From positions 1-64,000 of the IMG/VR virus record IMGVR_UViG_3300020227_000045: DNA of 64,000 bases; one strand, 5' to 3'. The notes under the pieces are model-generated. The model saw only the letters and a list, made by a program, of their open reading frames with translations, searched no databases and had not been told where the DNA came from. The position numbers were made by a program, and so were the translations under genes. Of the stretch, positions 12,499-60,779 are shown piece by piece (position 1 is the stretch's first letter; every line of letters starts with the position of its first letter). Source of the stretch: a virus (lineage: Duplodnaviria > Caudoviricetes).

Positions 12499-12684
12499 AT
12501 TAATCCGTTGTCAAAAATTTATAAAACTCTATAAATTTTATTCCTTATTCAACGTACCCCTTTTTGAGTATTTCACTATAAATAGCTACTTCTGATTACT
12601 CTACTAAGGTTTGTGTGATACTCCAAAGGCTTAAATTCCCATACAACGAATGGTACATATATTTAGTATCGTGTTAGTGATATT
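12495..12684 (-). ncRNA. Putative TnpB omegaRNA scaffold (right end)
   Basis: GTACC..GGTAC and CCTTTGGAGTAT..ATACTCAAAAAGG stems downstream of tnpB. Confidence 0.65.
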
Positions 12685-29735: not shown

Positions 29736-29929
29736 GTATAAATGTCTACTTATTTAGTAAGTCCTTATTTTAGTTTTCTTTGTATATCTTTTAGTTTATA
29801 TTCTATTTTCCCTTTTCTTTTAAGTTGTAATAGGTTTTTAAATAATGTAACTAAAAAGATTAGTACAAAACCTATTATACACCCAAATAATATCAATGTC
29901 AACCGCCACCTAAATTTTTCCTTTATAAA

Positions 29930-29957
29930 AACCGTAAGCTTTAAACTTACGGTTTAG
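29930..29957 (-). terminator. Hairpin after the terminase stop
   Basis: AAACCGTAAG..CTTACGGTTT inverted repeat. Confidence 0.7.
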
Positions 29958-29959
29958 TT

Positions 29960-32900
29960 TTAATCATCTAAAAAGAAATTATTATTGTCTTCATAGTTTG
30001 TATTAATGAATACAGAATCAAATTCATTTTCATTATTTTTAATGTACAAGTCTTCTAGACGTGATAGACCAATTCTAGCATATATACTTGCTTGACTATA
30101 GTGGTCATCGCCTTTTCTCTTGATTACTTGATACATTTCTTCTGTTCTACTATCTTCTTCATCTCTAATTACCACATTTTGCCAATGTTTAAGAAGTATA
30201 GCTTTATCGTTATCATTTTCTTGGTAAATTCTTATTCTTCCTGTTTTTAAATCTTGGATATAAATTTTGTTCTGCATTAATTTATCTACAGTAACAATAT
30301 TTGAATTCTCATTGAATACAGGTTTAATTTGTCCAGATGATTTAGGAGATGATTTGTAAGTACAACCAAACACAATATCTTCACCAAAGTATTGTTGAAG
30401 TCTTAGTAGGTTGTTTCCTGAATCTCCTGTATCTGCTACAATAATATCTGGATTATATTTAGAAAATTCTACACGTATTTGTTCTATATCTGATTCAACC
30501 ATATTAGGGTTTTTATTTCTTTTAACATTAAATAACCTAATTAAGTCTATCTTACCATCTTCGGTCATTCCATGTATAGTGCAATAATGAACATTTCCCC
30601 AATCCACTGATGCTGCGATAAATTTATAATCTCCTCTATTAAACATTTGTTTCTTAGCAATAGGAGATTGATTATCATAAATATCTTCTTGTAATACTTT
30701 CATCTTCTGGTCTTCATAAGGGAATCCTAGCGTGTAGTTATAAAACAATTGGGTTGATTCAGTGTTCATTTCTTTTTCTTTTAATTCACTAGCTGAAATC
30801 CAACATTTTTTGTTACGATTGAGTTCGTTATTCTCAACCTTCTATATATCGCTATATAAGTTCAGACTATATCTTTACCTTATCAAATGAGACTTAGGTA
30901 TCCTCTGTTTCGTGCTACTTAGCACTACTAATTAGTCGTTGCACGTTCTCTTATTACAAGAGCTTCGCTCATGATTATCTCTAATGAGAGACTTCCCATG
31001 AATTAAAAGGACTTCACTCTGTACATTTCTATATAGAGGGGCTTGGTTAACCGCATTTAGCTGTGAAATAAAATAACCTCTTGTTCCTTTTCCACCTTTA
31101 GTTCTTTCAGGGTACTTACAGTGCCATTCACCGTTATACCATCTATCTAGAAGTTTACCACATTTTTGACAAACAAATTGGTAACTTCCTTCTTGCACTG
31201 TTTTAGCCATCTCGTCAACACCTTCAGGATTGACTAATAGGATATTCCCACTCTTCTCTAAATTATCTGGGTCATAATCTTCATAACTCATTTCATTTAA
31301 GTAATCACAATGTGTACATCTATGACCATAATACCATTGGTCAGATTGCATGTAGAGTTTATGGATTCCCATATTTGGAGTCGTCTTAAACATTATTATT
31401 TTCATAATAAAATGGACTATCTCATAATCCTTATTTTTGGTTAAGGATTCTCTGCTTTACGAAATTAATCTCTTATCTGATTCTACCTTACTCCTTTTAG
31501 TAAGTTACTCAGAAATTTAGTCTCTAGGCATTTACAAGTATATAACTTGATTTAGCAATTGATTGTCTACAGCTTTACCTGTTTAGAGTTTCCAATTTTA
31601 ACAGAGTTTTTCAAAACAAATTACTTTGTTAAGCCCCACGATTTAACATAGGGGTACTCCAACGTCTTATAACCTTGAAAGGTGAACTTGACATTGATTC
31701 CATTGCTGATGATTCTGATGATGAAGGTACTCTATCATATTCCAAATTATACCGCTAGTTTCCTAGTATTTACTTACGGTTTAGACTATCTCATAACTAC
31801 TTACTTAGGTTAGTAGCTCCTTGCTTTACGAAATTAATCTCTTATCTGATTCTACCTTACTCCATTTAGTAAGTTACTCAGAAATTTAGTCGTTAGGCAT
31901 TTATCAGTTAATAACTGAATTTAGCAATTGATTGCCCTCAGCATTATCTGTTAGGGGTTTCCAATTTTAACAAGGTTTATACTGGACAAATTTTATCCAG
32001 TGACAAATAATCAATCATTTTTTTACTTAATACCCCTACTTTCGTAGTACTTTAACACTATTTAAATAGTGGGCTTAGACTATATCTTAGCTATTCATTA
32101 ATAGCTCCTTGCGTTACTTCTCTTTGAAAGAGTTTTTTTATCTAAAGTAATTTAGAAATTTAGTCGTTAGAGATTTTCCTCTACATAAAGTAGATTCTTT
32201 CCTACGGTATTCCCTCTATCCTTATAGGACTTAGGGTCTCTTACCAGCTACTTAAAGCTATGACCGTTTAGCAAGGTTTAACGTGAACAGATTATTTTAT
32301 CCACGCCTTCTAAAGCTTTAGGTGTAGAACTTGTTCTAAAGAACATACTTGAATTTCTTATTTGTTTATATTTCAAGGAATCATTATCTTGGTTAATTAT
32401 GCTTGCAAAATAAGGTTGTTGCAGTGTAGGGTTTATCCTACTTTGTACGAACTTTTGCATTTGATCACTGGTTGGGTCTAGGGTATACCGCTAGTTTCCT
32501 AGTACTTTAACACTTAATTAAAAGTCGGAGTAGACTATATCATAATCCTTATTTTCGGTTAAGGACTCTCTACGTTACGGATTAAATATCCTTTTATCTA
32601 GTTCTCAATATTCCCTTTTGAATATTTACCTAGAAGATTAGTCGTTAGGCATTTACGTAACTAAGGTATATATACCTTAGTTCGATTTAGCAATTGATTG
32701 TCCTCATCATTACATGTTAGGAGTTTCCAATTTTAGTAGAGTTATTCGATATACATTACTGTATAAAGCCTCCCCTAATTATTTGAAGGTGAACATACAT
32801 TTGACCGAATCTTTACTATGCGTATCTGCAAAGTGTAACATCTTATTGTATCCAACTTCACTTACGTTTATACCGTCACTTTCGTGATATTTATATACGG

Positions 32901-33750
32901 ACTAGACTATATCTTGATTGTATAAAGATAATTTTAATTACGGTTTATACAACCCCTTGCTTTACGAAATTAATCTTTTATACTGTTCTACACTCAACCA
33001 TTTATGAGCTTACCAGTAATTTTAGTCGTTCGGCATTTATCAGTTAGTAACTGAATTTAGCACAGGATTGTCCTCAACTTTACTTGTTAGGAGTTTCCCT
33101 GTTTAACAAGGTTTTACTTGAACAAATTTTTATCCAAGTTGTCTCGACTTAAGTACTGCTATGTTAGGATGTTTGTCATTACGTTTATACCGTCACTTTC
33201 GTGATATTTATATACGGACTAGACTATATCATAATCCTTATCTTTGGTTAAGGATTCTCTGCTTTACATTATTTATATTAAATAAATAACTATTATCTAG
33301 TTCTCAGTATCTCCTTTTAGATACCTACCTAGAAATTTAGTCGTTAGCCATTTATCTTAATTCTATTATAACATACACATTTAGTGTTGTCAATACTAAA
33401 ATTAAGAATTTAGGAAGGGATTCTCACTATCCGTTTGGACTTAGAGTTTCTTATCAGGATATTCTTTATTTTCCTATGCCCTTTTAACAGAGTTATTCGA
33501 TATACATTACTGTATAAAGTCACATTATTTATATGATAGCAATTTGCCATGGTCTATGAGCTTGAGCTTTACTTTTATCTCTATTTGGTATAGAAAAAGT
33601 AATATTATGACCACGTATTAAATTGTGTTTCAACATATAAGCAGTTGTACTAGACATTGTTAATACATAATCTAACTGTTCTTGGGTAACATTTGTAGTT
33701 CCATATGTGGATATGAGTAAGTCTTTTAATTGTTTTCCATCCATTTTCAT
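29960..33750 (-). CDS. terL: Terminase large subunit, split by 7 group I introns (605 aa after splicing)
   Basis: Exons 33750-33533, 33181-33132, 32864-32787, 32477-32299, 32015-31995, 31742-31650, 31384-31050, 30803-29960 sum to 1818 nt in frame: HRPWQIAII|NDKHPNIAVLKSRQLG|LSE..MFT|YPT..EGVD|IDYLSLD|EYDR..WSTP|TTPNMG..NAV|WISA; collinear with phage K terminase. Confidence 0.92.
30804..31049 (-). ncRNA. Group I intron terL-I7 (246 nt)
   Basis: GT|..ATG|TTGG junctions; P7 motifs. Confidence 0.88.
31385..31649 (-). ncRNA. Group I intron terL-I6 (265 nt)
   Basis: CCT|..AAG|ACG junctions; GAGACTA and GAGATAGTCC P7 strands. Confidence 0.88.
31743..31994 (-). ncRNA. Group I intron terL-I5 (252 nt)
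   Basis: Splits the Walker B region (SLD|EYD); P7 motifs. Confidence 0.9.
32016..32298 (-). ncRNA. Group I intron terL-I4 (283 nt)
   Basis: GAT|..G|ATT junctions, P7 motifs. Confidence 0.9.
32478..32786 (-). ncRNA. Group I intron terL-I3 (309 nt)
   Basis: U/G junctions, P7 motifs, frame restored (T|AC = Tyr). Confidence 0.85.
32865..33131 (-). ncRNA. Group I intron terL-I2 (267 nt)
   Basis: U/G junctions, P7 motifs, frame restored. Confidence 0.9.
33182..33532 (-). ncRNA. Group I intron terL-I1 (351 nt, no ORF)
   Basis: Upstream exon ends in U, intron ends in G; AACGACTA and GATATAGTCT P7 strands. Confidence 0.88.
33365..33393 (-). promoter_or_regulatory. Consensus sigma-A promoter inside terL intron 1
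   Basis: TTGACA-17nt-TATAAT, extended TG. Confidence 0.7.
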
Positions 33751-39754: not shown

Positions 39755-42730
39755 ATGGTTGCAAAACTCACAGAAAAAGAAGCAATAGCATTTGTCAAAA
39801 GTTTAGAAGGTAAGAAAATAGACTTTGATGGATGGTACGGATATTAACATAATGGTATCCTAACTCATTGAATTGACGGGAACCCCCTTAGAGCTTTAAC
39901 TACTAACTTATCATGGTGACATAGGTAAGGGCAAACAGTAATGTGTTTGGTAAAGTAAAAAAGTTAAAGATTGGGAAATCCGCAGGTAAGCTACTATGGT
40001 AACAGTAGTAGAAACTTCAACGACTAAATACTATCAATTGGTAGTTAGTGGTGAGTACTTGATAAAAGTTAAGTAATAATATAGTCTGTTCTTATAGGAA
40101 ACTATAAGAGTTACATTATACAATCAATGGTAGAAATATTATTGAGGAAAGATGATAACATAACAAAAAGCAATGTTTTGACCTAGCTAATGAATATTGG
40201 AATAAATTATTTGGCACAAGTCTTAAAGGTGTAGGAGCAAAAGACATACCTAATTCAAATAATTTTAAAGGTATAGCTAAGGTATATAATAATACATCTT
40301 CATTTAAAGCTAAACCAGGTGATTTGGTAATTTTCAACTCATCTTATGGTGGCGGGTATGGTCACGTAGCTATAGTTTTAAATGGAAATGCAGATGGAAA
40401 TTTAATGAAGTTTGTAAGTCTTGACCAGAATCAAATAAGGTTCCCTTTATATAGTAATATATAATTGAATAACACATTAAATTGCTGGAACCCCGTAAAG
40501 CTCAATTAACTACAACGTAATAGGAAACTATAAGCGTGAAAGTTAGGAAACTAGAAAAAATAATTGAGATACCATAAGCTGAGAAAAAGCTCAAAGAGTG
40601 CTAAGTGGTGAATAATCGGAAATCAGCATCCAAACCTACAAATAGTGGGGAGGTTCAACGACTATAATATGTGGCTCCTATAAGGAGTATGGTATAGTCT
40701 AGTCCGTAAATAAATACTAGGAAACTAGCGGTATAGACGTGGCAAGGCGGAGGATGGACAAGTGGTCCAGAAAAAGGTGGTACAGGTTGGGAAGCAGCAA
40801 CAAGAGTAACTCATCCATACGATTTCCCTATGTGGTTTATCAGACCATATTACAAAGAAGAGTCAAAAACAAAAACTACAAGTAAAAAAACAACAGCTAA
40901 GAAAAAAGCTAAAAAACTAACTTATATTCGTGATGAAGTAAAAGGTTATCGTTTACCTAATCGTGGATATAAGCCAAAAGGGATAGTTCTACACAACGAT
41001 GCGGGTAGTGCAGGTGCTACAGCTGAAGCGTACCATCGTGGATTAGTAAATGCACCATACTCAAGATTAGCTGCTGGTATTGCTCATTCTTATATCAGTG
41101 GTAACACAGTATATCAAGCATTACCAGAAAGCAGAGTAGGTTGGCATACGGCTTAATTTAGGTCATTTGTATAGTAATATACATCTAAATGTGTTTTAAT
41201 TCAGAGGAAGTCTAAACAATATAAGTTGTAGATAATTCTGAGCTAAGTTTATATTGACATATAATTATATTTATTGTATAATATTCATAGGAGGAGATTT
41301 TATGGAATTATACAAATTAGAAAATATTAAAGGTTTAGAAGAATTAAAAGGATACTCAATAGATAAAGAAGGTAACGTATACTCTCACAAATATACAACT
41401 TCGAATGGTAATACTTTTTATTATCATATATCAAATGAACCAGTTAAGAAATTAACTACTAAAAAAGATAGTAGAGGTTATATAAAAATAGGGTTAAACG
41501 GTAAAAGTTTATTCATTCATAGGCTGTTAGCTTTATTATTTATTCCTAATCCAGAGAATAAAGAACAAGTAAATCATATGAACGGTGTTAAAGATGATAA
41601 TAGAATAGAAAATTTAGAATGGTGTACAAACAGAGAAAATAGAATACATGCTATAGAGAATAATTTGTTAGATAACATACCTTATGGCATTTCTCAGTAC
41701 ACTAAAGAAGGGTTACATGTTAGAGATTATGATACTTGTTTAGAAGCTATAGAATACTTAGGCTTAGACAAAGGTGCTTCTGGAAATATAGGAAGATGTA
41801 TTAGAGGTAAAAGAAAAACAGCTTATGGTTATATATGGAAGTCAATATAAAAAAGTGCAACGACTATCCCTTAGGACGAGTGCCAATAAAAATAAATCGT
41901 CAACAGGAGTAGGGCTCAAGTCAATGGAGTGGGTGAAAATCCCTTAAATCGAAAAGGACACTTCCTTTTATAAGGAAAAGATATAGTCTATTCTTATAGG
42001 AAACTATAAGGAGTTCATAAGAGAACCAATAAAGAGTTACGAACTTTATTGAATATTAAAGAACCAAAATGGTAATAAAAATTACTATGGTATAGAAATA
42101 TGTCAATCTATAGGTGCAAGTGATAAAGTATTCTTAGCTAATGAACAAGCATCTTTCCAAGAAGCTGCTCGTTTATTAAATAAATGGGGATTAACAGCTA
42201 ATAGAAATACTATCCGTTTACACATGGAATTTTCTCAAACTAGCTGTCCTCATAGAAGTATGAAGTTACACACTGGTTTTGACCCTGTAACACAAGGCGT
42301 ACCTTCAAAAGCTACACAGCTTAAACTCAAAGACTATTTTATTAAGCAAATTCGTGCTTATCAAAATGGTAAAATACCAACTGCAACTGTTTCTAAAAAC
42401 ACTAGCTCTGCAAGCAATACAAAATCAACTGTAGCAGGAAAATGGAAACGTAATTCTTTCGGAACGTATTACATGACAGAAAAAGCTAGATTTACTAATG
42501 GTAATCAACCTATAGCAGCAAGAACAGTAGGACCTTTCAGAAGTTGTCCATTAGCTTATTGGTTCCAACCAGGAGGATACTGTGATTATGACGAAGTAAT
42601 GCTTCAAGATGGTCACGTATGGATTGGATATGATTGGCAAGGACAAAGATATTATCTTCCTATACGTACATGGAATGGAGTAGCTCCTCCAAATCAAGGT
42701 TTAGGAAACCTTTGGGGTTCAATTAAGTAA
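39755..42730 (+). CDS. Endolysin CHAP-Amidase_2-SH3b, split by 3 group I introns (477 aa after splicing)
   Basis: Exons 39755-39844, 40171-40431, 40740-41153, 42062-42730: WYGY|QCFD..LDQN|WQGGG..GWHTA|NQNGN; amidase and SH3b are LysK-like. Confidence 0.92.
39845..40170 (+). ncRNA. Group I intron lys-I1 (326 nt, no ORF), just before the catalytic QC of CHAP
   Basis: U/G junctions; CAACGACTA and TATAGTCT motifs. Confidence 0.88.
40432..40739 (+). ncRNA. Group I intron lys-I2 (308 nt, no ORF)
   Basis: AAT|..ACG|TGG; CAACGACTA and TATAGTCTAGTCC motifs. Confidence 0.88.
41154..42061 (+). mobile_element. Group I intron lys-I3 (908 nt) encoding an HNH homing endonuclease
   Basis: HTA|NQ site as in the phage K lysK intron; P7 motifs after the ORF. 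Confidence 0.9.
41302..41850 (+). CDS. Intron-encoded HNH endonuclease with NUMOD1-like C-terminus
   Basis: [30 protein letters not shown]; own TTGACA-17-TATAAT promoter and GGAGG RBS. Confidence 0.88.
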   Translation: MELYKLENIKGLEELKGYSIDKEGNVYSHKYTTSNGNTFYYHISNEPVKKLTTKKDSRGYIKIGLNGKSLFIHRLLALLFIPNPENKEQVNHMNGVKDDNRIENLEWCTNRENRIHAIENNLLDNIPYGISQYTKEGLHVRDYDTCLEAIEYLGLDKGASGNIGRCIRGKRKTAYGYIWKSI

Positions 42731-51032: not shown

Positions 51033-53706
51033 ATGTCTAACCAAATGTTCGGAGGACATCTAGACCCATACGAAACAACAGATAACTATGAGTACCCTTA
51101 TCACCCAGCAGGTAATCCTAAAAAGATAGATAAATCAGAAGTAGAATCATATACTCTAGCTGATTATGGTTGGACACCTGAAGCTATCAAAGAACATTAC
51201 ATGTATGGTATAAGGGTACAAAACCCTGAAACAGGTAAAGAAATGGATGATGCTTTCTATTATCATGTATTTGAAGTGGCTATAGATAAAGCAGAAAAAG
51301 CATTAGATATATCTATACTACCTGATTTCCAAGATGAACAAAGAGACTATTATGAACAAGACTTCAATAGTTACATGTTTGTTCATGCTTATAAAAAACC
51401 AATACTACAAGTTGAAGGATTACAATTACACTTCAATGGTAGACCAATATATAAATATCCAGCTAACTGGTGGAAAGTACACCATGTAGATGGACAAGTA
51501 CAGTTATATCCAACAGCTTTAATGCAAGTAGGACAGGGAGCTAGTTATTCTAGTGCGGTGAGTGGTTATCCTTATCTAGCAGGTATGATGCCACCACAAG
51601 GTAATACTTATGCTCCTCAAATGATACATTTAGAATACATTTCAGGTATGTTACCACAGAAAAGAGCAGGCGTAACTAAACCATGGGAATGTCCTACAAG
51701 TTTACAACAATTAGTAATTAAATACGCACTTAAAGAGATATACCAAGTATGGGGTTACGATGATATTACCCTGTGTGTAGCGTAAGTTGCACATTTTCAA
51801 AGGTTAACTGCTAAGAAATCCTAAAGCTAACTAAACTACAAAGTAATCTGAAAGGATAGGCTTGAATGTTGAGAAATCAGAAAAAATTAGTTAGATACTC
51901 TAAGGTTAAATCCTAAGGAGAAGAGCAATGGAAGTTTAGCATCGAAAGTCCTAAGTCAATAGATAAGGAATACGTTCAACGACTATTCTGTATAGACGAC
52001 AGAAGTAAAGCTCCAAGTGATTGGGAGAAGAAAAATCTTTACCCTAGTCTTAGGGATAACAAATAGTCTGCACACGTCTTGAAAAAGAGTGCTAGGAATT
52101 GACCTAGACTTATTTAGTAGCGTAAGTAAGGAAACAATGTTAATTAAATGAAAACTTCCTATTGAAATTACCCCAAGTATATGTTATATTATAGGTATAA
52201 TATATATAAGGTGGTGAAAGTAAATGAAAAAAACGGAAAATAAATTTTATAGAGGTATAATACTAAAAGTAAACCCTACACAAGAACAAGAAGATTTAAT
52301 GTGGAAACATGTTAATCACTCAAGGTTTATTTATAATTATATGTTAGAAAGATATTGGGAAGCTTTAGATAGTGATAAATATATAGACTATAAGAATATG
52401 CTTTCTTTACTTAAGGAAATGAAAAAAGAAGATGATTATGATTTCTTAAATGAAGTATCTAGAAAAACTTTAGTTGGTAAAATAGATGATTTAAGAGAAG
52501 CTTTAATAAAGTACCATAATCATGAAATAAGAAAACCTAAATTTAAGTCTAAAAAGAGAGAACCTAAACGTTTTCCAATTAGATATGACCGTATGCACTT
52601 CAGTAAAGAAAAAAGTGTTAAGGTTGAGAAGTTAGGCTACTTAAGAATTTCTAATGGAACATATAAAAATAATAAATCAGTACTTGAGAATGAAAACATT
52701 AAACCTTTAAATCCTAAGTGCTATTATGACGGTAAATATTGGTATGTATCATTTTCGGTAGAAGTAGATAATCAATACAAAAAAGAAAATGATAACACTG
52801 ATGAAGTTGTAGGAATAGACTTAGGTAGTGGTAAAAAACACGTAATTTGTTCTAACAGAAAAATATATGGTAATATTATTTATTCTAAGAAAATGAAAAG
52901 GTTAGAAAAAAAAATATCTGACCTACAGAAAAGATTAAGTAATAAATATGATATTAACCACACCAAAACAAATAATGTTTTAAAGCTAGAAAATAAGATA
53001 GCTAAAGTTTATAGGAAAATGTCAAATATCCGTAAAAATCATGTACATGAAATAACAAAAGAAATTGTTGAAAAGTATCCTAAAGAGATTATTGTAGAGG
53101 ATATAAGAGTTCGTGATTTAATAAAAGACAGAGGATATACAGGACAAAAAAGAAAAAAAATACAGTTTTCTAATTTCTATATGATTAGACAGCAATTACA
53201 ATATAAATGTGAAGATAGAGGTATAAAATTTACAGTAGCTAATACTTATTATCCATCATCACAAATATGTAGTAATTGCGGAGAAAGAAAAAGAAATGCT
53301 TTAAAATTACAGTTAGGTGATAAAGTCTTTAAATGTAATGCTTGTGGATATGAAGAAGATAGAGATATTAATGCAAGTATTAACTTAAAAAATTACCATA
53401 AATCTCAATGGTTAAAAGAACAAAACCAATAATATGTTTGCTTTTAGTAGGGTTCTATAACCCGAAAATATAATGCCTTTTATTTTAAGAAGGAAGTTAA
53501 TTTAATTAACATATGGTAATCTCATTATCGGTGCAGGAATAGCAAACAAATCACTAGATGTTGATGGTATTAGTGAAACAATCGGTACTACTCAATCAGC
53601 TATGTATGGTGGAGCTAGTGCTCAAATACTTCAAATAAATGAAGATATTGGAGAACTACTAAAAGGTCTACAATCATACTTTGGTACCAACATGGTAGCT
53701 ATCTAA
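51033..53706 (+). CDS. Conserved head-completion/neck protein, split by an IStron (303 aa after splicing)
   Basis: Exons 51033-51754 and 53517-53706 join as KEIYQVWG|NLIIGAGIANK, collinear with the phage K gene two downstream of capsid. Confidence 0.88.
51755..53516 (+). mobile_element. IStron-like element: group I intron fused to a TnpB-only IS607-type module
   Basis: P4 (TGCTAA/TTAGCA), P7 (AACGACTA 51986-/AATAGTCT 52122-), tnpB in the 3' part, GG at both junctions, precise removal restores the host ORF. Confidence 0.85.
52224..53432 (+). CDS. tnpB: RNA-guided endonuclease TnpB, 402 aa (IStron-encoded)
   Basis: GIDLG, IVEDI, CSNC..CNAC, DRDINASINL; all three RuvC acidic residues present. 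Confidence 0.93.
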   Translation: MKKTENKFYRGIILKVNPTQEQEDLMWKHVNHSRFIYNYMLERYWEALDSDKYIDYKNMLSLLKEMKKEDDYDFLNEVSRKTLVGKIDDLREALIKYHNHEIRKPKFKSKKREPKRFPIRYDRMHFSKEKSVKVEKLGYLRISNGTYKNNKSVLENENIKPLNPKCYYDGKYWYVSFSVEVDNQYKKENDNTDEVVGIDLGSGKKHVICSNRKIYGNIIYSKKMKRLEKKISDLQKRLSNKYDINHTKTNNVLKLENKIAKVYRKMSNIRKNHVHEITKEIVEKYPKEIIVEDIRVRDLIKDRGYTGQKRKKIQFSNFYMIRQQLQYKCEDRGIKFTVANTYYPSSQICSNCGERKRNALKLQLGDKVFKCNACGYEEDRDINASINLKNYHKSQWLKEQNQ

Positions 53707-56276: not shown

Positions 56277-56297
56277 TAGATAGGAGACATAAATAAT

Positions 56298-58067
56298 ATG
56301 GCTGAAAGTGTATTTCCAAGAATCCCTATCACCCGTCCACATACAGAAATCAATGTAGATACGTCAGGTATTGGTGGTTCAGCAAGTTCAAGTGAGAAGA
56401 TTCTTTGCTTAATTGGACAAGCTGAAGGTGGGGAACCTAACACAGTATATGAATTACGAAATTATTCACAAGCTGAACAAGTTTTCCGTTCAGGAGAGTT
56501 AGTAGATGCTATTCATTTAGCATGGACTACAAACCCACAATTTACAGCAGGAACTATTTTAGCAATGCGTATTGAAGATGCAGAACCTGCAACACTAACT
56601 AAAGGTGGATTAACTTTTAAATCTAAAATCTATGGTGTAGATTCTAACGACATTCAAGTTGCTTTAGAAGAAAACACTATTACAGATTCTTACCGTTTGA
56701 AAGTTAACTTTGATAAAGACCGTATTCGTAACACTTACGATAATATCGGTAACATCTTCAAATTAGAATATACAGGTGAAGGTCAAGGTACTTATACAGT
56801 TAAACATAGTAAAGAAACTGGAAAAGCTACAAACCTAATCTTAAGTGAAGATGGTTCAGAAGTAAGAAACTATGCACTAGGTGAAGGTGTATATGAATAT
56901 ACAAATGACATCATTAAAGATGTAAACAACTTACCAAGCTTTAAAGCTACATTATCACCTTTTGGAAATAAAGACTTAGAAACTAAGTATTTAGATGAAG
57001 CTAAAGATGTAGATATTAAAGTTGAAGACGGAGTTTATGTAACAGCAATATTCGGTGATATTCTAAATCAAACAAAATATGACCAAGCAGTTACAATTGA
57101 ACGTGCAGAAGCACAACAAGAATCTCCAAGTGACGTAGATGTAGAAGCAGGAGAAACTAGTGCTGAAGTAACAGCAGGAAGCACTGTATCTACACAAGAA
57201 ATCGAACCATTTGAATTGTCTAACTTACAAGGTGGAACAAATGGAACACCACCAAGTACTTGGTCAGAAAAATTAGATAAATTTGCTCATGAAGGTGGAT
57301 ACTACATTGTACCACTAAGTTCTAGACAATCTGTACACGCAGAGGTTGCACACTTTGTAACTTCACGTACAGATGCAGGAGAACCAATGAGAGCTATTGT
57401 TGGTGCAGGATTTAATGAAGCAAAAGAACAATTAATTGGTCGTGCTTCAGCTCTAGTAAATCCTCGTGTTACACTTATAGCTAACTCTGGTACATTTATG
57501 ATGGGAGATGGACGTAGAAACCATGTACCTGCATATATGGTAGCAGCAGCTATTGGTGGTTTAGCAAGTGGGCTAGATATTGGTGAATCAATCACATTCA
57601 AGAACTTCGGTATTAATTCATTAGACCAAGTTTATGAGTCAGCAGACTTAGACCAATTAAACGAAAACGGTGTTGTATCTATCGAATTCGTTCGTGACAG
57701 ATTAAATACTCGTTTCCGTATTGTAGATGATGTTACAACATTCAATGATACAAGAGACCCTGTTAAATCTGAAATGGCAATTGGTGAAGAAAACGACTTC
57801 TTAAGTTCTGAACTTAAAGTCTTACTCGATGATAACTTCATCGGTACTAGAACAACAGAAACAAGTCCTTCAATTATCAAAGACTTTATTCAGTCTTATC
57901 TTGAACGTAAAAAACGTGACCATGAAATCCAAGATTTCACACCAGAAGACGTACAAGTTATTATTGAAGGTAAAGAAGCACGTATATCAATGACAGTATT
58001 CCCAATCAGAACATTGAAAAAAATTACTGTATCATTGGTTTATAAAGAACAACAATTACAAGCCTAA
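56298..58067 (+). CDS. Major tail sheath protein
   Basis: FPRxPITRPH..VDTSGIGGSASSSEK; phage K-type sheath. Confidence 0.95.
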   Translation: MAESVFPRIPITRPHTEINVDTSGIGGSASSSEKILCLIGQAEGGEPNTVYELRNYSQAEQVFRSGELVDAIHLAWTTNPQFTAGTILAMRIEDAEPATLTKGGLTFKSKIYGVDSNDIQVALEENTITDSYRLKVNFDKDRIRNTYDNIGNIFKLEYTGEGQGTYTVKHSKETGKATNLILSEDGSEVRNYALGEGVYEYTNDIIKDVNNLPSFKATLSPFGNKDLETKYLDEAKDVDIKVEDGVYVTAIFGDILNQTKYDQAVTIERAEAQQESPSDVDVEAGETSAEVTAGSTVSTQEIEPFELSNLQGGTNGTPPSTWSEKLDKFAHEGGYYIVPLSSRQSVHAEVAHFVTSRTDAGEPMRAIVGAGFNEAKEQLIGRASALVNPRVTLIANSGTFMMGDGRRNHVPAYMVAAAIGGLASGLDIGESITFKNFGINSLDQVYESADLDQLNENGVVSIEFVRDRLNTRFRIVDDVTTFNDTRDPVKSEMAIGEENDFLSSELKVLLDDNFIGTRTTETSPSIIKDFIQSYLERKKRDHEIQDFTPEDVQVIIEGKEARISMTVFPIRTLKKITVSLVYKEQQLQA

Positions 58068-58136: not shown

Positions 58137-59403
58137 ATGGCAAGTGAAGCTAAACAGTCCATTCACACTGGTAATACCGTCTATCTCATGATTAAAGGTA
58201 AAATTGTAGGCAGAGCTCAATCAGCTTCAGGTACTCGTGAATACGGTACTGAGGGCGTATATGAAATTGGTTCAATTATGCCACAAGAACACGTTTACCT
58301 TAGATATGAAGGTACGGTTACAATAGAAAGATTACGAATGAAAAAAGAAAACTTCGCAAAATTAGGATATGCTTCTTTAGGTGAAGAAATCCTTAAAAAA
58401 GATGTTATCGACATTTTAGTTGTAGATAACTTAACTAAGAGTGTAATCATAGCATACCATGGTTGTAGTGCTAATAACTATAAAATTTGTAGCTTTAGGA
58501 AGTAATTCCTATCGAAAAACTTTTCTAAACAGGGAAACCTAAGTACAATTTGTATAAGGCAATCCTGTGCTAAATTGACTTAATCAGTCATAAATGCCAA
58601 ACGACTAACAGAAACCTATTCATATAAGTGAAGGGAGTAAGAGTACAGCCAAGTGGTCAAGGTGTTGGGTAATAACCAAATAAATCCTTGTTAAATGGAA
58701 AAGAAAAGAATCCTTAATATAAAAAGGATTATGATATAGTCTCATCTATATGGAAACATATAGCAGTTCTAAAAGAACGTACAATGATTAACGACCATTG
58801 TAGAAGTAAATGGATGAAGAAATTAATACCAATGAAATGATTACAGAAAGTATTGAGTAGGTAAAAAGCTCCTATAATCAGAAATGGTTATAGCAAATCT
58901 CTCTAATTCATGGAAACCCCTAACAAGTAATGATGAGGGCAATCATGAGCGAAGCTCTTAAAACAAGAGAACGTGCAACGACTAGTCTACGGACGTACAA
59001 TCAAGTGATTGGAAATGGGAGACACCTTCAATTTTAAGGTGATGATATAGTCTGAACTATATGGAAACATATAGAAGGATAGAATTAACGATTCTATTCG
59101 TAACAAAATTGTTTCTTATCTTACAGCATTAAATTTCTAGTGCCCTTATACAGTAATGTATATTGAATCAATCCTCTAATTCAGGGAAACCCTAAACGAA
59201 ATTAAGACGTAGGCAATCCTGAGCCAAGCCTATAATTAGGAAGGTGCAACGACTATCTCTAAGGAGAGTACGCTCAAGTGAGTGGAAATGGGGATTATCC
59301 TATACAATATAGGATAGTGATATAGTCTGGACTATATGGAAACATATAGAAGGTTAGGAGTAACGAACCTAATCGTAACATAATCGCAGATAAAGCATCA
59401 TAA
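58137..59403 (+). CDS. Tail tube protein, split by 3 group I introns (141 aa after splicing)
   Basis: Exons 58137-58481, 58813-58858, 59112-59129, 59387-59403: CSANNY|DEEINTNEMITESIE|FSYLTA|SDKAS. Confidence 0.92.
58482..58812 (+). ncRNA. Group I intron tube-I1 (331 nt)
   Basis: U/G junctions, P7 motifs. Confidence 0.88.
58859..59111 (+). ncRNA. Group I intron tube-I2 (253 nt)
   Basis: U/G junctions, P7 motifs. Confidence 0.9.
59130..59386 (+). ncRNA. Group I intron tube-I3 (257 nt)
   Basis: U/G junctions, P7 motifs. Confidence 0.9.
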
Positions 59404-59513
59404 TATTTTAGAATATTTAAACCCAACAATAAAAGTTGGGTTTATTTTTTTTATACTTTACATAACAGAGCAACTATGATATAATATAAATATAAACAAA
59501 AGGAGGATATATT

Positions 59514-60779
59514 ATGACATTAACAAATAGAAGAAATAAAGGTTCTATAGGAGAGCAAATAGTAGATACGATATTAGGGTATAATAATATGACTTATGAA
59601 AGAGAATATACAATAATTAACAAAGAAGAAAGAAAACAAAGGATGGATTTTAAAGTTAAGTATAGAGGTAAAGATTACTGTATTGAATATATGGGTGAAC
59701 AACATTATGTTGATAAAACTATATTTGACTTAAAAAGTATACAAAAGAATGATAAACTTAAAAAAGAATATTGCTTAGATAACGGTATCATATTTATTGA
59801 AATTAGTTACTTAGAAAATTCTATAGATAGTATTTATAAAATATTAAAATGGTATTTCAAAGATATTAAAAAACCTAAAAATATAGAATTATATAAGGAA
59901 GCAAATAAATTTAAAGGAAATATAACTATAGAAAATAAAAGAAAGAATATTAAATTTACAGGAACATATGGAGATATATTAAATGAATTTAAAGATATAA
60001 ATGAATCAAATATTAATAAGTGTTTAAATGGGGAGACTGATAGTATTGGTGGTTATCTCATGTCTTTTGAAGATGATTATTTAGAAAGTATAAGAATTTT
60101 AAATTGTCAAGAAAGAAAGGATAAAAGGAAAAACAAACCATTAAAAAAACCTAGAGAAAAAACACCTATTGTTGCTCTAAATGTATATACAATGGAAGAA
60201 TATAAATTTGATTCTATTAATGAGTGTCAAAAAGAATTAGGTCTAACTGGAGTTTATAACTTAATATTTCCTAGAGAAGAAGATAGAACAAGAGTTAGTT
60301 TAAAGGGTTTTATATTTAAAAAAGTAGGAGAAGAATATAAACACAATCCAAAAGAAGTTAGAGAAAAATTAAAAAAAAGAAAACCTCAAAAGGTAAATAA
60401 ACCTGCGGTTCCTAAAAGACAAGTATACATGATTGATATAGAAACAGGAAAGGAAACAAAATTTGAATCTATAGCACAAGCAGAAAGAGAGACAGGTATA
60501 AAAGGAATCTCAACATATATTTCAAGTAAAAGAAACAGAGTATCATTAAAAGGAAAAATGTTTAGAATAGACGGACAAGAGTATAGATATAGTTTAGAAG
60601 AAGCTAGAAGTAAATCTCAAAAAAGAAAAGTAGAAGCTTATAATATAGAAACAGGAGACAAAATAATAGGAAGTCTAAATGAAGTAGGTAGGAAAATAGG
60701 GGTTTCAGGAACTAACATAAGTAAAGTTTTAAGAGGTAAAGGTAAAAGTTTAAAGGGATATACATTTGAGTATAAATAA
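59514..60779 (+). CDS. Putative free-standing homing endonuclease (PD-(D/E)xK N-terminus, NUMOD1-like repeats)
   Basis: RMDF...CIEYMGEQHY; repeated F.SI.E....G...I modules. Confidence 0.7.
   Translation: MTLTNRRNKGSIGEQIVDTILGYNNMTYEREYTIINKEERKQRMDFKVKYRGKDYCIEYMGEQHYVDKTIFDLKSIQKNDKLKKEYCLDNGIIFIEISYLENSIDSIYKILKWYFKDIKKPKNIELYKEANKFKGNITIENKRKNIKFTGTYGDILNEFKDINESNINKCLNGETDSIGGYLMSFEDDYLESIRILNCQERKDKRKNKPLKKPREKTPIVALNVYTMEEYKFDSINECQKELGLTGVYNLIFPREEDRTRVSLKGFIFKKVGEEYKHNPKEVREKLKKRKPQKVNKPAVPKRQVYMIDIETGKETKFESIAQAERETGIKGISTYISSKRNRVSLKGKMFRIDGQEYRYSLEEARSKSQKRKVEAYNIETGDKIIGSLNEVGRKIGVSGTNISKVLRGKGKSLKGYTFEYK

Follow-up and report, generated by a model that had tools for sequence, protein, structure and literature searches.

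Anatomy of the terL locus

The stretch of DNA considered here (the window, 64,000 nucleotides) comprises positions 1 to 64,000 of the IMG/VR virus record IMGVR_UViG_3300020227_000045, and is part of a metagenome-assembled fragment of 74.5 kb that is about 51% complete. On the minus strand, from 33750 to 29960, the window carries a large terminase gene (terL) in eight exons (E1 to E8), which are separated by seven introns (I1 to I7). The gene starts with an ATG at 33750, 2 bases past the stop codon of an upstream small-terminase-like gene, and a second copy was not found in the 74.5-kb record. The features are as follows, in the direction of the gene, with intron sites numbered along the spliced coding sequence.

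33533..33750, minus strand: exon 1, 218 nt, from the ATG at 33750 to ...PWQIAI(I), ending in phase 2
33182..33532, minus strand: intron I1, 351 nt, site 218, with enlarged P5 and P6 regions
33132..33181, minus strand: exon 2, 50 nt, NDKHPNIAVLKSRQLG, containing the predicted Walker A motif
32865..33131, minus strand: intron I2, 267 nt, site 268, splitting the codon after KSRQLG
32787..32864, minus strand: exon 3, 78 nt
32478..32786, minus strand: intron I3, 309 nt, site 346
32299..32477, minus strand: exon 4, 179 nt, ending in ...ALEGVD
32016..32298, minus strand: intron I4, 283 nt, site 525
31995..32015, minus strand: exon 5, a micro-exon of 21 nt, IDYLSLD (predicted Walker B strand)
31743..31994, minus strand: intron I5, 252 nt, site 546, separating the predicted Walker B Asp from the catalytic Glu
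31650..31742, minus strand: exon 6, 93 nt, EYDRV...RRWSTP
31385..31649, minus strand: intron I6, 265 nt, site 639, directly after WSTP
31050..31384, minus strand: exon 7, 335 nt, end of the ATPase domain and a Cys-rich segment
30804..31049, minus strand: intron I7, 246 nt, site 974
29960..30803, minus strand: exon 8, 844 nt including the TAA stop, candidate nuclease domain
29927..29955, minus strand: terminator-like site directly past the terL stop, a 10-bp hairpin and then a run of T, read from the sequence

Joined together, the exons (218+50+78+179+21+93+335+844 nt) amount to 1818 nt, i.e. 605 codons and a TAA, with no internal stop. These computed lengths are identical to those of the original prediction, which had been made from the letters of the window alone and had proposed in-frame splicing to a 605-aa product. 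The accompanying rule, that 5' exons end in U and introns in G, holds at 7/7 exons and 7/7 introns. A tblastn search with TerL of Kayvirus MCE-2014, itself encoded in two exons, recovered all eight exons, including the 21-nt micro-exon, and an intron-less Kayvirus terL from IMG/VR aligns without interruption to residues 3-605 of the spliced product, with 66% identity. Inteins, frameshifts, stop-codon recoding and gene decay were also considered and rejected. They do not fit, because the inserts are non-coding, ribozyme-like RNA and shift the reading phase.

Exact junctions and selection on the spliced frame

The nearest GenBank relatives of the window are Baoshanvirus phages of staphylococci. 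For comparison, the spliced coding sequence was mapped onto the terL loci of relatives, namely phiSA_BS1 (BS1), phiSA_BS2 (BS2), JDF86, PSU4, RSM-J51Sa, Golestan101-M (Golestan101) and the IMG/VR genome 3300010165 (complete, with terminal repeats), and the U/G rule was applied. In the 7 relatives, the rule left a single possible boundary for almost all of the mapped introns. In silico removal of the introns restores the 605-codon frame, and all seven exon-exon joins match the intron-less allele of some relative base for base and without gaps. The alleles in question are the following.

Site 218 (end of exon 1): BS2, JDF86 and others
Site 268: PSU4, BS1
Site 346: JDF86, BS1, RSM-J51Sa, Golestan101
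Site 525: all relatives
Site 546: PSU4, Golestan101
Site 639: Golestan101, IMG/VR 3300010165, Kayvirus, Twort
Site 974: BS1, BS2, JDF86 and others

Selection on the spliced frame is strongly purifying, with ratios of nonsynonymous to synonymous substitution rates (dN/dS) of 0.075 in comparison with JDF86 and 0.078 in comparison with BS1, at a dS of about 0.3.

The intron-less alleles carry synonymous differences right at the insertion sites. Exon 2 (33132-33181), which lies between I1 and I2, shows no more than 70-78% identity to relatives that have neither intron, against 83-97% for the other exons. Possible causes of these differences are co-conversion with the introns, or constraints from pairing in P1 and P10.

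The terminase and the placement of introns at its motifs

With the Pfam model GpA_ATPase (PF05876), the Kayvirus orthologue scores 62 bits, and exon 7 of the window on its own scores 24.4 bits, against a cut-off of 25.6. Exon 8 matches Terminase_6C weakly (18.2 bits, below the 22.6 cut-off), and 74 full-length TerL homologues were found for it at E<=1e-20. No solved structure was matched by the sequence search. In order to place the motifs, a profile of 65 Herelleviridae TerL proteins was aligned to gpA of phage lambda (E=5e-9), which gave the following correspondence.

PWQ: aligns with lambda PFQ; I1 lies five residues downstream
KSRQLGLS: aligns with lambda K76SARVGYS83 (Walker A); I2 lies inside the motif
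IDYLSLD (Walker B strand): aligns with lambda ...GYD178; bracketed by I4 and I5 as the 21-nt exon
D and E at the E5/E6 join: align with lambda D178 and E179; separated by I5
WSTP: aligns with lambda GSTP; I6 follows

The functional names of the lambda motifs (Walker A and B, catalytic Glu, C motif, Q motif) are those in use for lambda terminase. Judged by this alignment, the spliced product is a predicted GpA-type large terminase with Walker A, Walker B with the catalytic Glu, and the C motif. The introns had been proposed to cluster at the ATPase motifs, and the alignment supports this, because it places the motifs at the intron sites, with KSRQLGLS, LSLD with the following E, and WSTP all falling on lambda motifs. 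I7, at residue 325, lies past the end of the ATPase domain match.

Group I identity of the seven introns

The original prediction had called the seven inserts ORF-less group I introns (lacking an open reading frame) and had named a covariance search with the Intron_gpI model as a check. This search, run with Rfam RF00028 on the terL region alone, matches all seven gaps, once each and on the coding (minus) strand. Three introns score above the gathering score of 50 bits (I7 with 90.6, I2 with 55.4 and I6 with 53.7 bits), followed by I3 (46.3 bits, E=6e-10), I5 (41.1 bits, E=2e-8), I4 (27.3 bits) and I1 (21.8 bits). The alignments extend over P3-P9. Blank Rfam results should not be taken as evidence of absence, since a search of the whole 64-kb window drops I7, despite its 90.6 bits in the region-only search. 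Similarly, cmscan runs on the terL loci of relatives were blank, although these loci hold a 100% copy of I2 and a 99.6% copy of I7, and we read this as an artefact of the filter or the tool.

For the two introns with the lowest scores, an intron-family profile (nhmmer) was used that was built from 11 ORF-less members, without I1, I4 and I7. I1 is matched over the full length with E=1.7e-44, and in I4 the match (E=5.5e-12) is confined to the 3' half. The unaided minimum free energy (MFE) folds of both introns contain P1, a long-range P3 around P4-P6 and the P7.1/P7.2 hairpins, and then P8 and P9. The fold of I1 (z=-4.05) also shows P2, and that of I4 (z=-3.84) has a group-I-like architecture. 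The assignment of I1 and I4 to the group I introns is thus backed by the family profile and the predicted folds, despite the weak Rfam scores.

A common structure is also apparent from the comparison of the introns with each other. When all seven are aligned with MAFFT, no position of the P7 strands GACUA and AUAGUC varies, and RNAalifold finds the helices P2, P3, P6, P7.1, P8 and P9, with compensatory changes in 32 of 44 pairs. P7 itself yields no covariation evidence, because it never varies. The hallmark of subgroup IA2, P7.1/P7.2, is present as a nested pair of helices (alignment columns 222-259) that covaries in I1-I6; the region forms two hairpins in the MFE fold of I4 and is a shorter insert in I7. 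In six of the seven introns (I1, I2, I4, I5, I6 and I7), the U at the splice site pairs with a guide G in the MFE hairpin.

The introns are 246-351 nt long, and no stop-to-stop frame in any of them exceeds about 50 aa. They are therefore ORF-less, without an endonuclease gene, and an intron-encoded homing endonuclease gene, as expected for a mobile intron, was found in none of the seven window introns. In I1-I6, an in-frame stop codon follows within at most 6 codons of the 5' splice site.

Overall, the locus is very probably a single GpA-type terL gene of a Baoshanvirus/Twort-like Staphylococcus myophage, cut by seven ORF-less group I introns of the IA2 type. Several observations weigh against this conclusion. 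The Rfam scores of I4 (27.3 bits) and I1 (21.8 bits, a partial match) are under the gathering score, and the MFE hairpin of I3 pairs the splice-site U with an A, so that a U.G pair requires a shifted register. The contigs of four RNA or possibly RNA runs, which stem from related strains with other intron sets, contained no clean spliced junction; the joints that were seen are either intron-less alleles with synonymous differences, or belong to introns at other sites, such as 1053. On the other side, an oligo-dT run yielded one 263-nt contig that covers I6 only (31385-31647) and would fit excised intron RNA, but it has low depth and a sequence common to many relatives, and is at most a weak hint. 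Also against the conclusion, the record was assembled from a metagenome, and stretches of as many as 49 nt are identical between introns, so that an assembly path through mixed strains could overstate the number of introns per molecule.

The weak Rfam scores of I1 and I4, together with the unusual insertions in their P5 and P6 regions, raise the question whether at least one intron, most plausibly one of these two, is catalytically dead, so that terL would be non-functional or a helper factor would be needed for splicing. Some Bastillevirinae introns are indeed spliced in vivo, but not in vitro (PMC11878797). However, the 605-codon frame is intact with a dN/dS of about 0.08, the core segments are invariant, the unaided folds of I1 and I4 have canonical architecture, and the gene is the only terL in the record. 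We consider this reading extremely unlikely, and continue to regard the locus as a probably functional terL with seven group I introns.

Relatives and the spectrum of insertion sites

The intron sites in terL of the window and its relatives are listed below.

This window: sites 218, 268, 346, 525, 546, 639, 974 (7 introns)
IMG/VR 3300010165: sites 202, 268, 346, 542, 1053, 1674 (6 introns)
PSU4: sites 202, 351, 639, 974, 1053 (5 introns)
RSM-J51Sa: sites 202, 268, 639, 886, 1053 (5 introns)
Golestan101-M: sites 202, 268, 898, 974, 1053 (5 introns)
phiSA_BS1: sites 546, 639, 886 (3 introns)
phiSA_BS2: sites 346, 546, 639 (3 introns)
JDF86: sites 546, 639 (2 introns)

Taken together, the window and its relatives have 14 distinct intron sites in one gene of 1.8 kb. 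The terL gene is a hotspot for group I introns in the Baoshanvirus/Twort-like clade, with sites that vary between genomes. The relatives resemble the window in their terL exons, which are 88-99% identical, and share the sites 268, 346, 546, 639 and 974 with it. They differ in having 2-6 introns, several with endonuclease genes of about 1 kb, and in their further sites 202, 351, 542, 886, 898, 1053 and 1674, which are empty in the window. The GenBank records of the Baoshanvirus relatives list terL as separate fragments, and we found no publication that describes the introns of these phages.

Most window introns have close counterparts at the same site. An identical copy of I2 (100%) is present in IMG/VR 3300010165, while RSM-J51Sa and Golestan101 carry endonuclease-bearing versions and Twort a long intron at site 268. 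Copies of I3 that are 90-93% identical are found in BS2 and IMG/VR 3300010165. The same intron as I5 is present in BS1, BS2 and JDF86 with an insert of about 1 kb, annotated as an HNH endonuclease in BS1 and BS2. Copies of I6 are 96-98% identical in BS1, BS2, JDF86 and RSM-J51Sa, with an endonuclease-bearing version in PSU4, and copies of I7 in PSU4 and Golestan101 are 99.6-100% identical. Site 218 (I1) is otherwise occupied only in Twort and one metagenome contig. Among the phage genomes compared, site 525 (I4) is occupied in the window only, and contigs of run X18 carry an intron there too.

The terL locus of IMG/VR 3300010165 lies in the region 132900-138300 of this 140-kb genome. Its intron at site 542 is located 4 nt from site 546 of the window, in the same Walker B strand, and a 1.3-kb intron at site 1674 is found near the 3' end of the gene.

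The spectrum of sites bears on the question of whether the count of seven has been inflated. The contig could be a path through co-occurring strains with fewer introns each, joined in the short exons or in shared intron blocks. The record is a metagenomic fragment (an uncultivated virus genome, UViG, of IMG/VR), related strains with differing intron sets are present in many samples, and some internal exons measure just 21-78 nt, with identical intron blocks of 21-49 nt. The exact set of seven sites occurs in no other genome compared. When exon 8 was used to scan IMG/VR and metagenome contigs, no close relatives came up other than BS2 and UViG 3300010165, and neither these scans nor the genomes compared yielded a second genome with the same set. 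On the other hand, there are isolates with 5 introns, and a complete genome with terminal repeats that has 6 introns and equally short exons, so the high intron density of the clade is real. The identical blocks are at most 49 nt long, which is typically below the largest k-mer sizes that widely used assemblers employ. Moreover, an independent run has contigs that cross E1/I1, E4/I4 and I4-E5-I5 and differ from the window by 2-3 mismatches, and the rarest introns (I1 and I4) and the micro-exon arrangement thus exist in another sample. One run holds 95% of the words of the region, but this is probably the source sample. It is therefore very unlikely, in our judgement, that the count is an artefact, and the seven introns probably reside in one gene.

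Intron kinship and possible routes of arrival

I1-I6 are paralogues with 57-77% pairwise identity. The last 49 nt of I1 and I2 are identical, and I5 and I6 share an identical block of 42 nt, I1 and I3 one of 31 nt. Since these blocks form a mosaic, they suggest recombination between intron copies. By sequence, I7 belongs to a second intron lineage, and is closest (67% identity) to an intron at 58842-59074 in the tail-tube gene of the window.

In the relatives, inserts of about 1 kb are found in the same ribozyme at sites 268, 546 and 639, with annotated endonuclease-type ORFs at site 546 of BS1 and BS2 (HNH) and in a PSU4 intron. The window copies are minimal forms without the endonuclease gene.

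The tail-tube gene (58137-59441, plus strand) lies just downstream of the tail sheath gene (56280-58067) and has three group I introns of its own. It is the counterpart of the three-intron orf142 of phage Twort. The introns are the following.

58471-58763, plus strand: tail-tube intron, Rfam 79 bits
58842-59074, plus strand: tail-tube intron, Rfam 98.3 bits
59120-59349, plus strand: tail-tube intron, Rfam 98.1 bits

Proposed splicing of terL

A plausible scheme starts from one precursor RNA of about 3.8 kb that would cover all of terL. Each intron may fold into its own ribozyme, with a P1 in which a U.G pair marks the 5' splice site, a P3-P8 core with the GACUA/UAGUC P7, the P7.1/P7.2 hairpins and a terminal G. 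It would then excise itself by two guanosine-initiated transesterifications. Seven correct splicing events would rebuild the 1818-nt mRNA for a packaging ATPase-nuclease of 605 aa, and the early in-frame stops in I1-I6 may prevent ribosomes from entering the ribozyme cores. Likely selfish elements, the introns would have accumulated where the ATPase is most conserved: close to the Q motif, within Walker A, around Walker B, behind the C motif and in the linker between the domains.

Errors of splicing must be considered. Exons 2, 4 and 5 all end in UGGAU, and the guide sequences of I2, I4 and I5 are cross-compatible, so that mis-splicing in terL is, from the sequence, a real possibility. It is conceivable that the intron array is regulatory, with the rate of splicing timing the packaging, or with in-frame skipping of E5, E6 or E3 giving rise to ATPase-dead TerL isoforms. 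The frame would be kept on skipping E3 (78 nt), E5 (21 nt), E6 (93 nt) or E5 and E6 together, the guide of I5 pairs with its own exon at -9.4, with the end of E4 at -5.8 and with the end of E2 at -5.7 kcal/mol, and the 3' splice-site contexts of I1 and I2 are identical. Exon skipping has been reported for Twort orf142 and for a gene of phage SIOphi (PMC11878797). However, the cognate P1 pairing is usually stronger than the alternatives, and from 2 to 7 introns are spread over 14 sites with free variation among close relatives. Because of this variation, selfish spread fits better than a conserved regulatory design, and we find a regulatory role of the array very improbable. A shade less credence still is given to the specific proposal that the array is used for E5/E6 skipping to ATPase-dead isoforms, or for packaging timing, by way of the I2, I4 and I5 guides and the I1 and I2 3' sites. 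The best-supported reading remains that of selfish group I introns that would each remove themselves from a single terL transcript.

Comparison with known systems

Group I introns in the terL genes of Twortvirinae and phage genes with multiple introns are already known. The Twort tail-tube gene orf142 is similar to the window terL in its Twortvirinae origin, the IA2-type family of its introns and its short internal exons, but has three introns rather than seven. Self-splicing and exon skipping have been published for orf142, as cited in PMC11878797.

The Twort terL gene was recovered by tblastn in four pieces, with cuts at about 218, 268 and 898, whereas the record (MT151386) joins three pieces. 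The first two cuts are at about the same sites as in the window and produce the same class of 50-nt exon. Unlike the seven ORF-less introns of the window, two of the three Twort introns encode endonucleases (IepA and IepB). An extra terL gap of about 257 nt in MT151386, at ~40234-40490, has 73-75% matches to I2 and I5 of the window. In view of the fourth tblastn piece and this gap, there seems to be a third, ORF-less and maybe unannotated Twort terL intron near site 218.

Kayvirus genomes have zero or one terL intron. The intron of Kayvirus MCE-2014 is inserted after ...YTFP/FTYP, adjoining the I3 site, and parts of its ribozyme have 80-94% local identity to I1 and I2. In contrast to the window, it is the single terL intron and carries an endonuclease ORF.

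In more distant phages, up to 3 introns per gene have been described in pol and terL of Bastillevirinae (PMC11878797), five fragments in the major capsid protein (MCP) gene of the crAss-like Zeta group (PMC7886860), and 2-3 fragments in terL of Jug phages (PMC12880540). As in the window, group I introns reside in core replication or packaging genes in these phages, sometimes with small exons and exon skipping (PMC11878797, PMC7886860, PMC12880540), but the window terL stands apart with its eight exons. The published maxima that we found are 3-4 introns per gene, and the expectation of the original prediction, that seven would exceed the published multi-intron phage genes, is consistent with them. 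As far as found, seven is the record intron count for one phage gene, and a quantitative extreme of a known kind. The window terL is the top of a continuum and no isolated oddity, because the unannotated relatives have 5-6 introns and Twort has 3.

With 8 exons in 1.8 kb of coding sequence, terL of the window is apparently the most intron-dense phage protein gene on record, and the comparison indicates that 14 alternative group I sites, which vary between near-identical phages, can exist in a single essential gene. If splicing occurs as proposed, packaging would depend on seven correct splicing events. The locus therefore offers a natural system for several questions: how ORF-less introns reach new sites (with endonucleases acting in trans, by recombination between copies or by reverse splicing), how tandem ribozymes with exons of 21-93 nt between them avoid mis-splicing, and why introns target catalytic motifs. 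On the practical side, terL is a standard marker for phylogeny and annotation, yet it is filed as 2-5 unconnected fragments in the GenBank relatives.

Other features of the window

The tail-tube gene is followed by a 427-aa ORF (59496-60779) with repeated DNA-binding-like modules, possibly a free-standing endonuclease. The endolysin gene (40159-41850, plus strand) looks split in two, with a CHAP-like region at 40159-40464 and an amidase-like one at 40737-41156. Although Rfam gives no match there, positions 40681-40738 are hit by the 3' end of the terL intron-family profile (E=1.2e-11), and an ORF-less intron of about 270 nt is therefore probably located between the endolysin parts. An HNH-like ORF (41242-41850) follows the split endolysin.

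In the own-genome search, a weak Intron_gpI match was found at 51840-52091 (plus strand; 21 bits, E=1.3e-4). Rfam matches above the gathering score include the Staphylococcus small RNA (sRNA) S808 at 42295-42549 (plus strand, 85.2 bits) and RAGATH-18 at 12541-12629 (minus strand, 60 bits).

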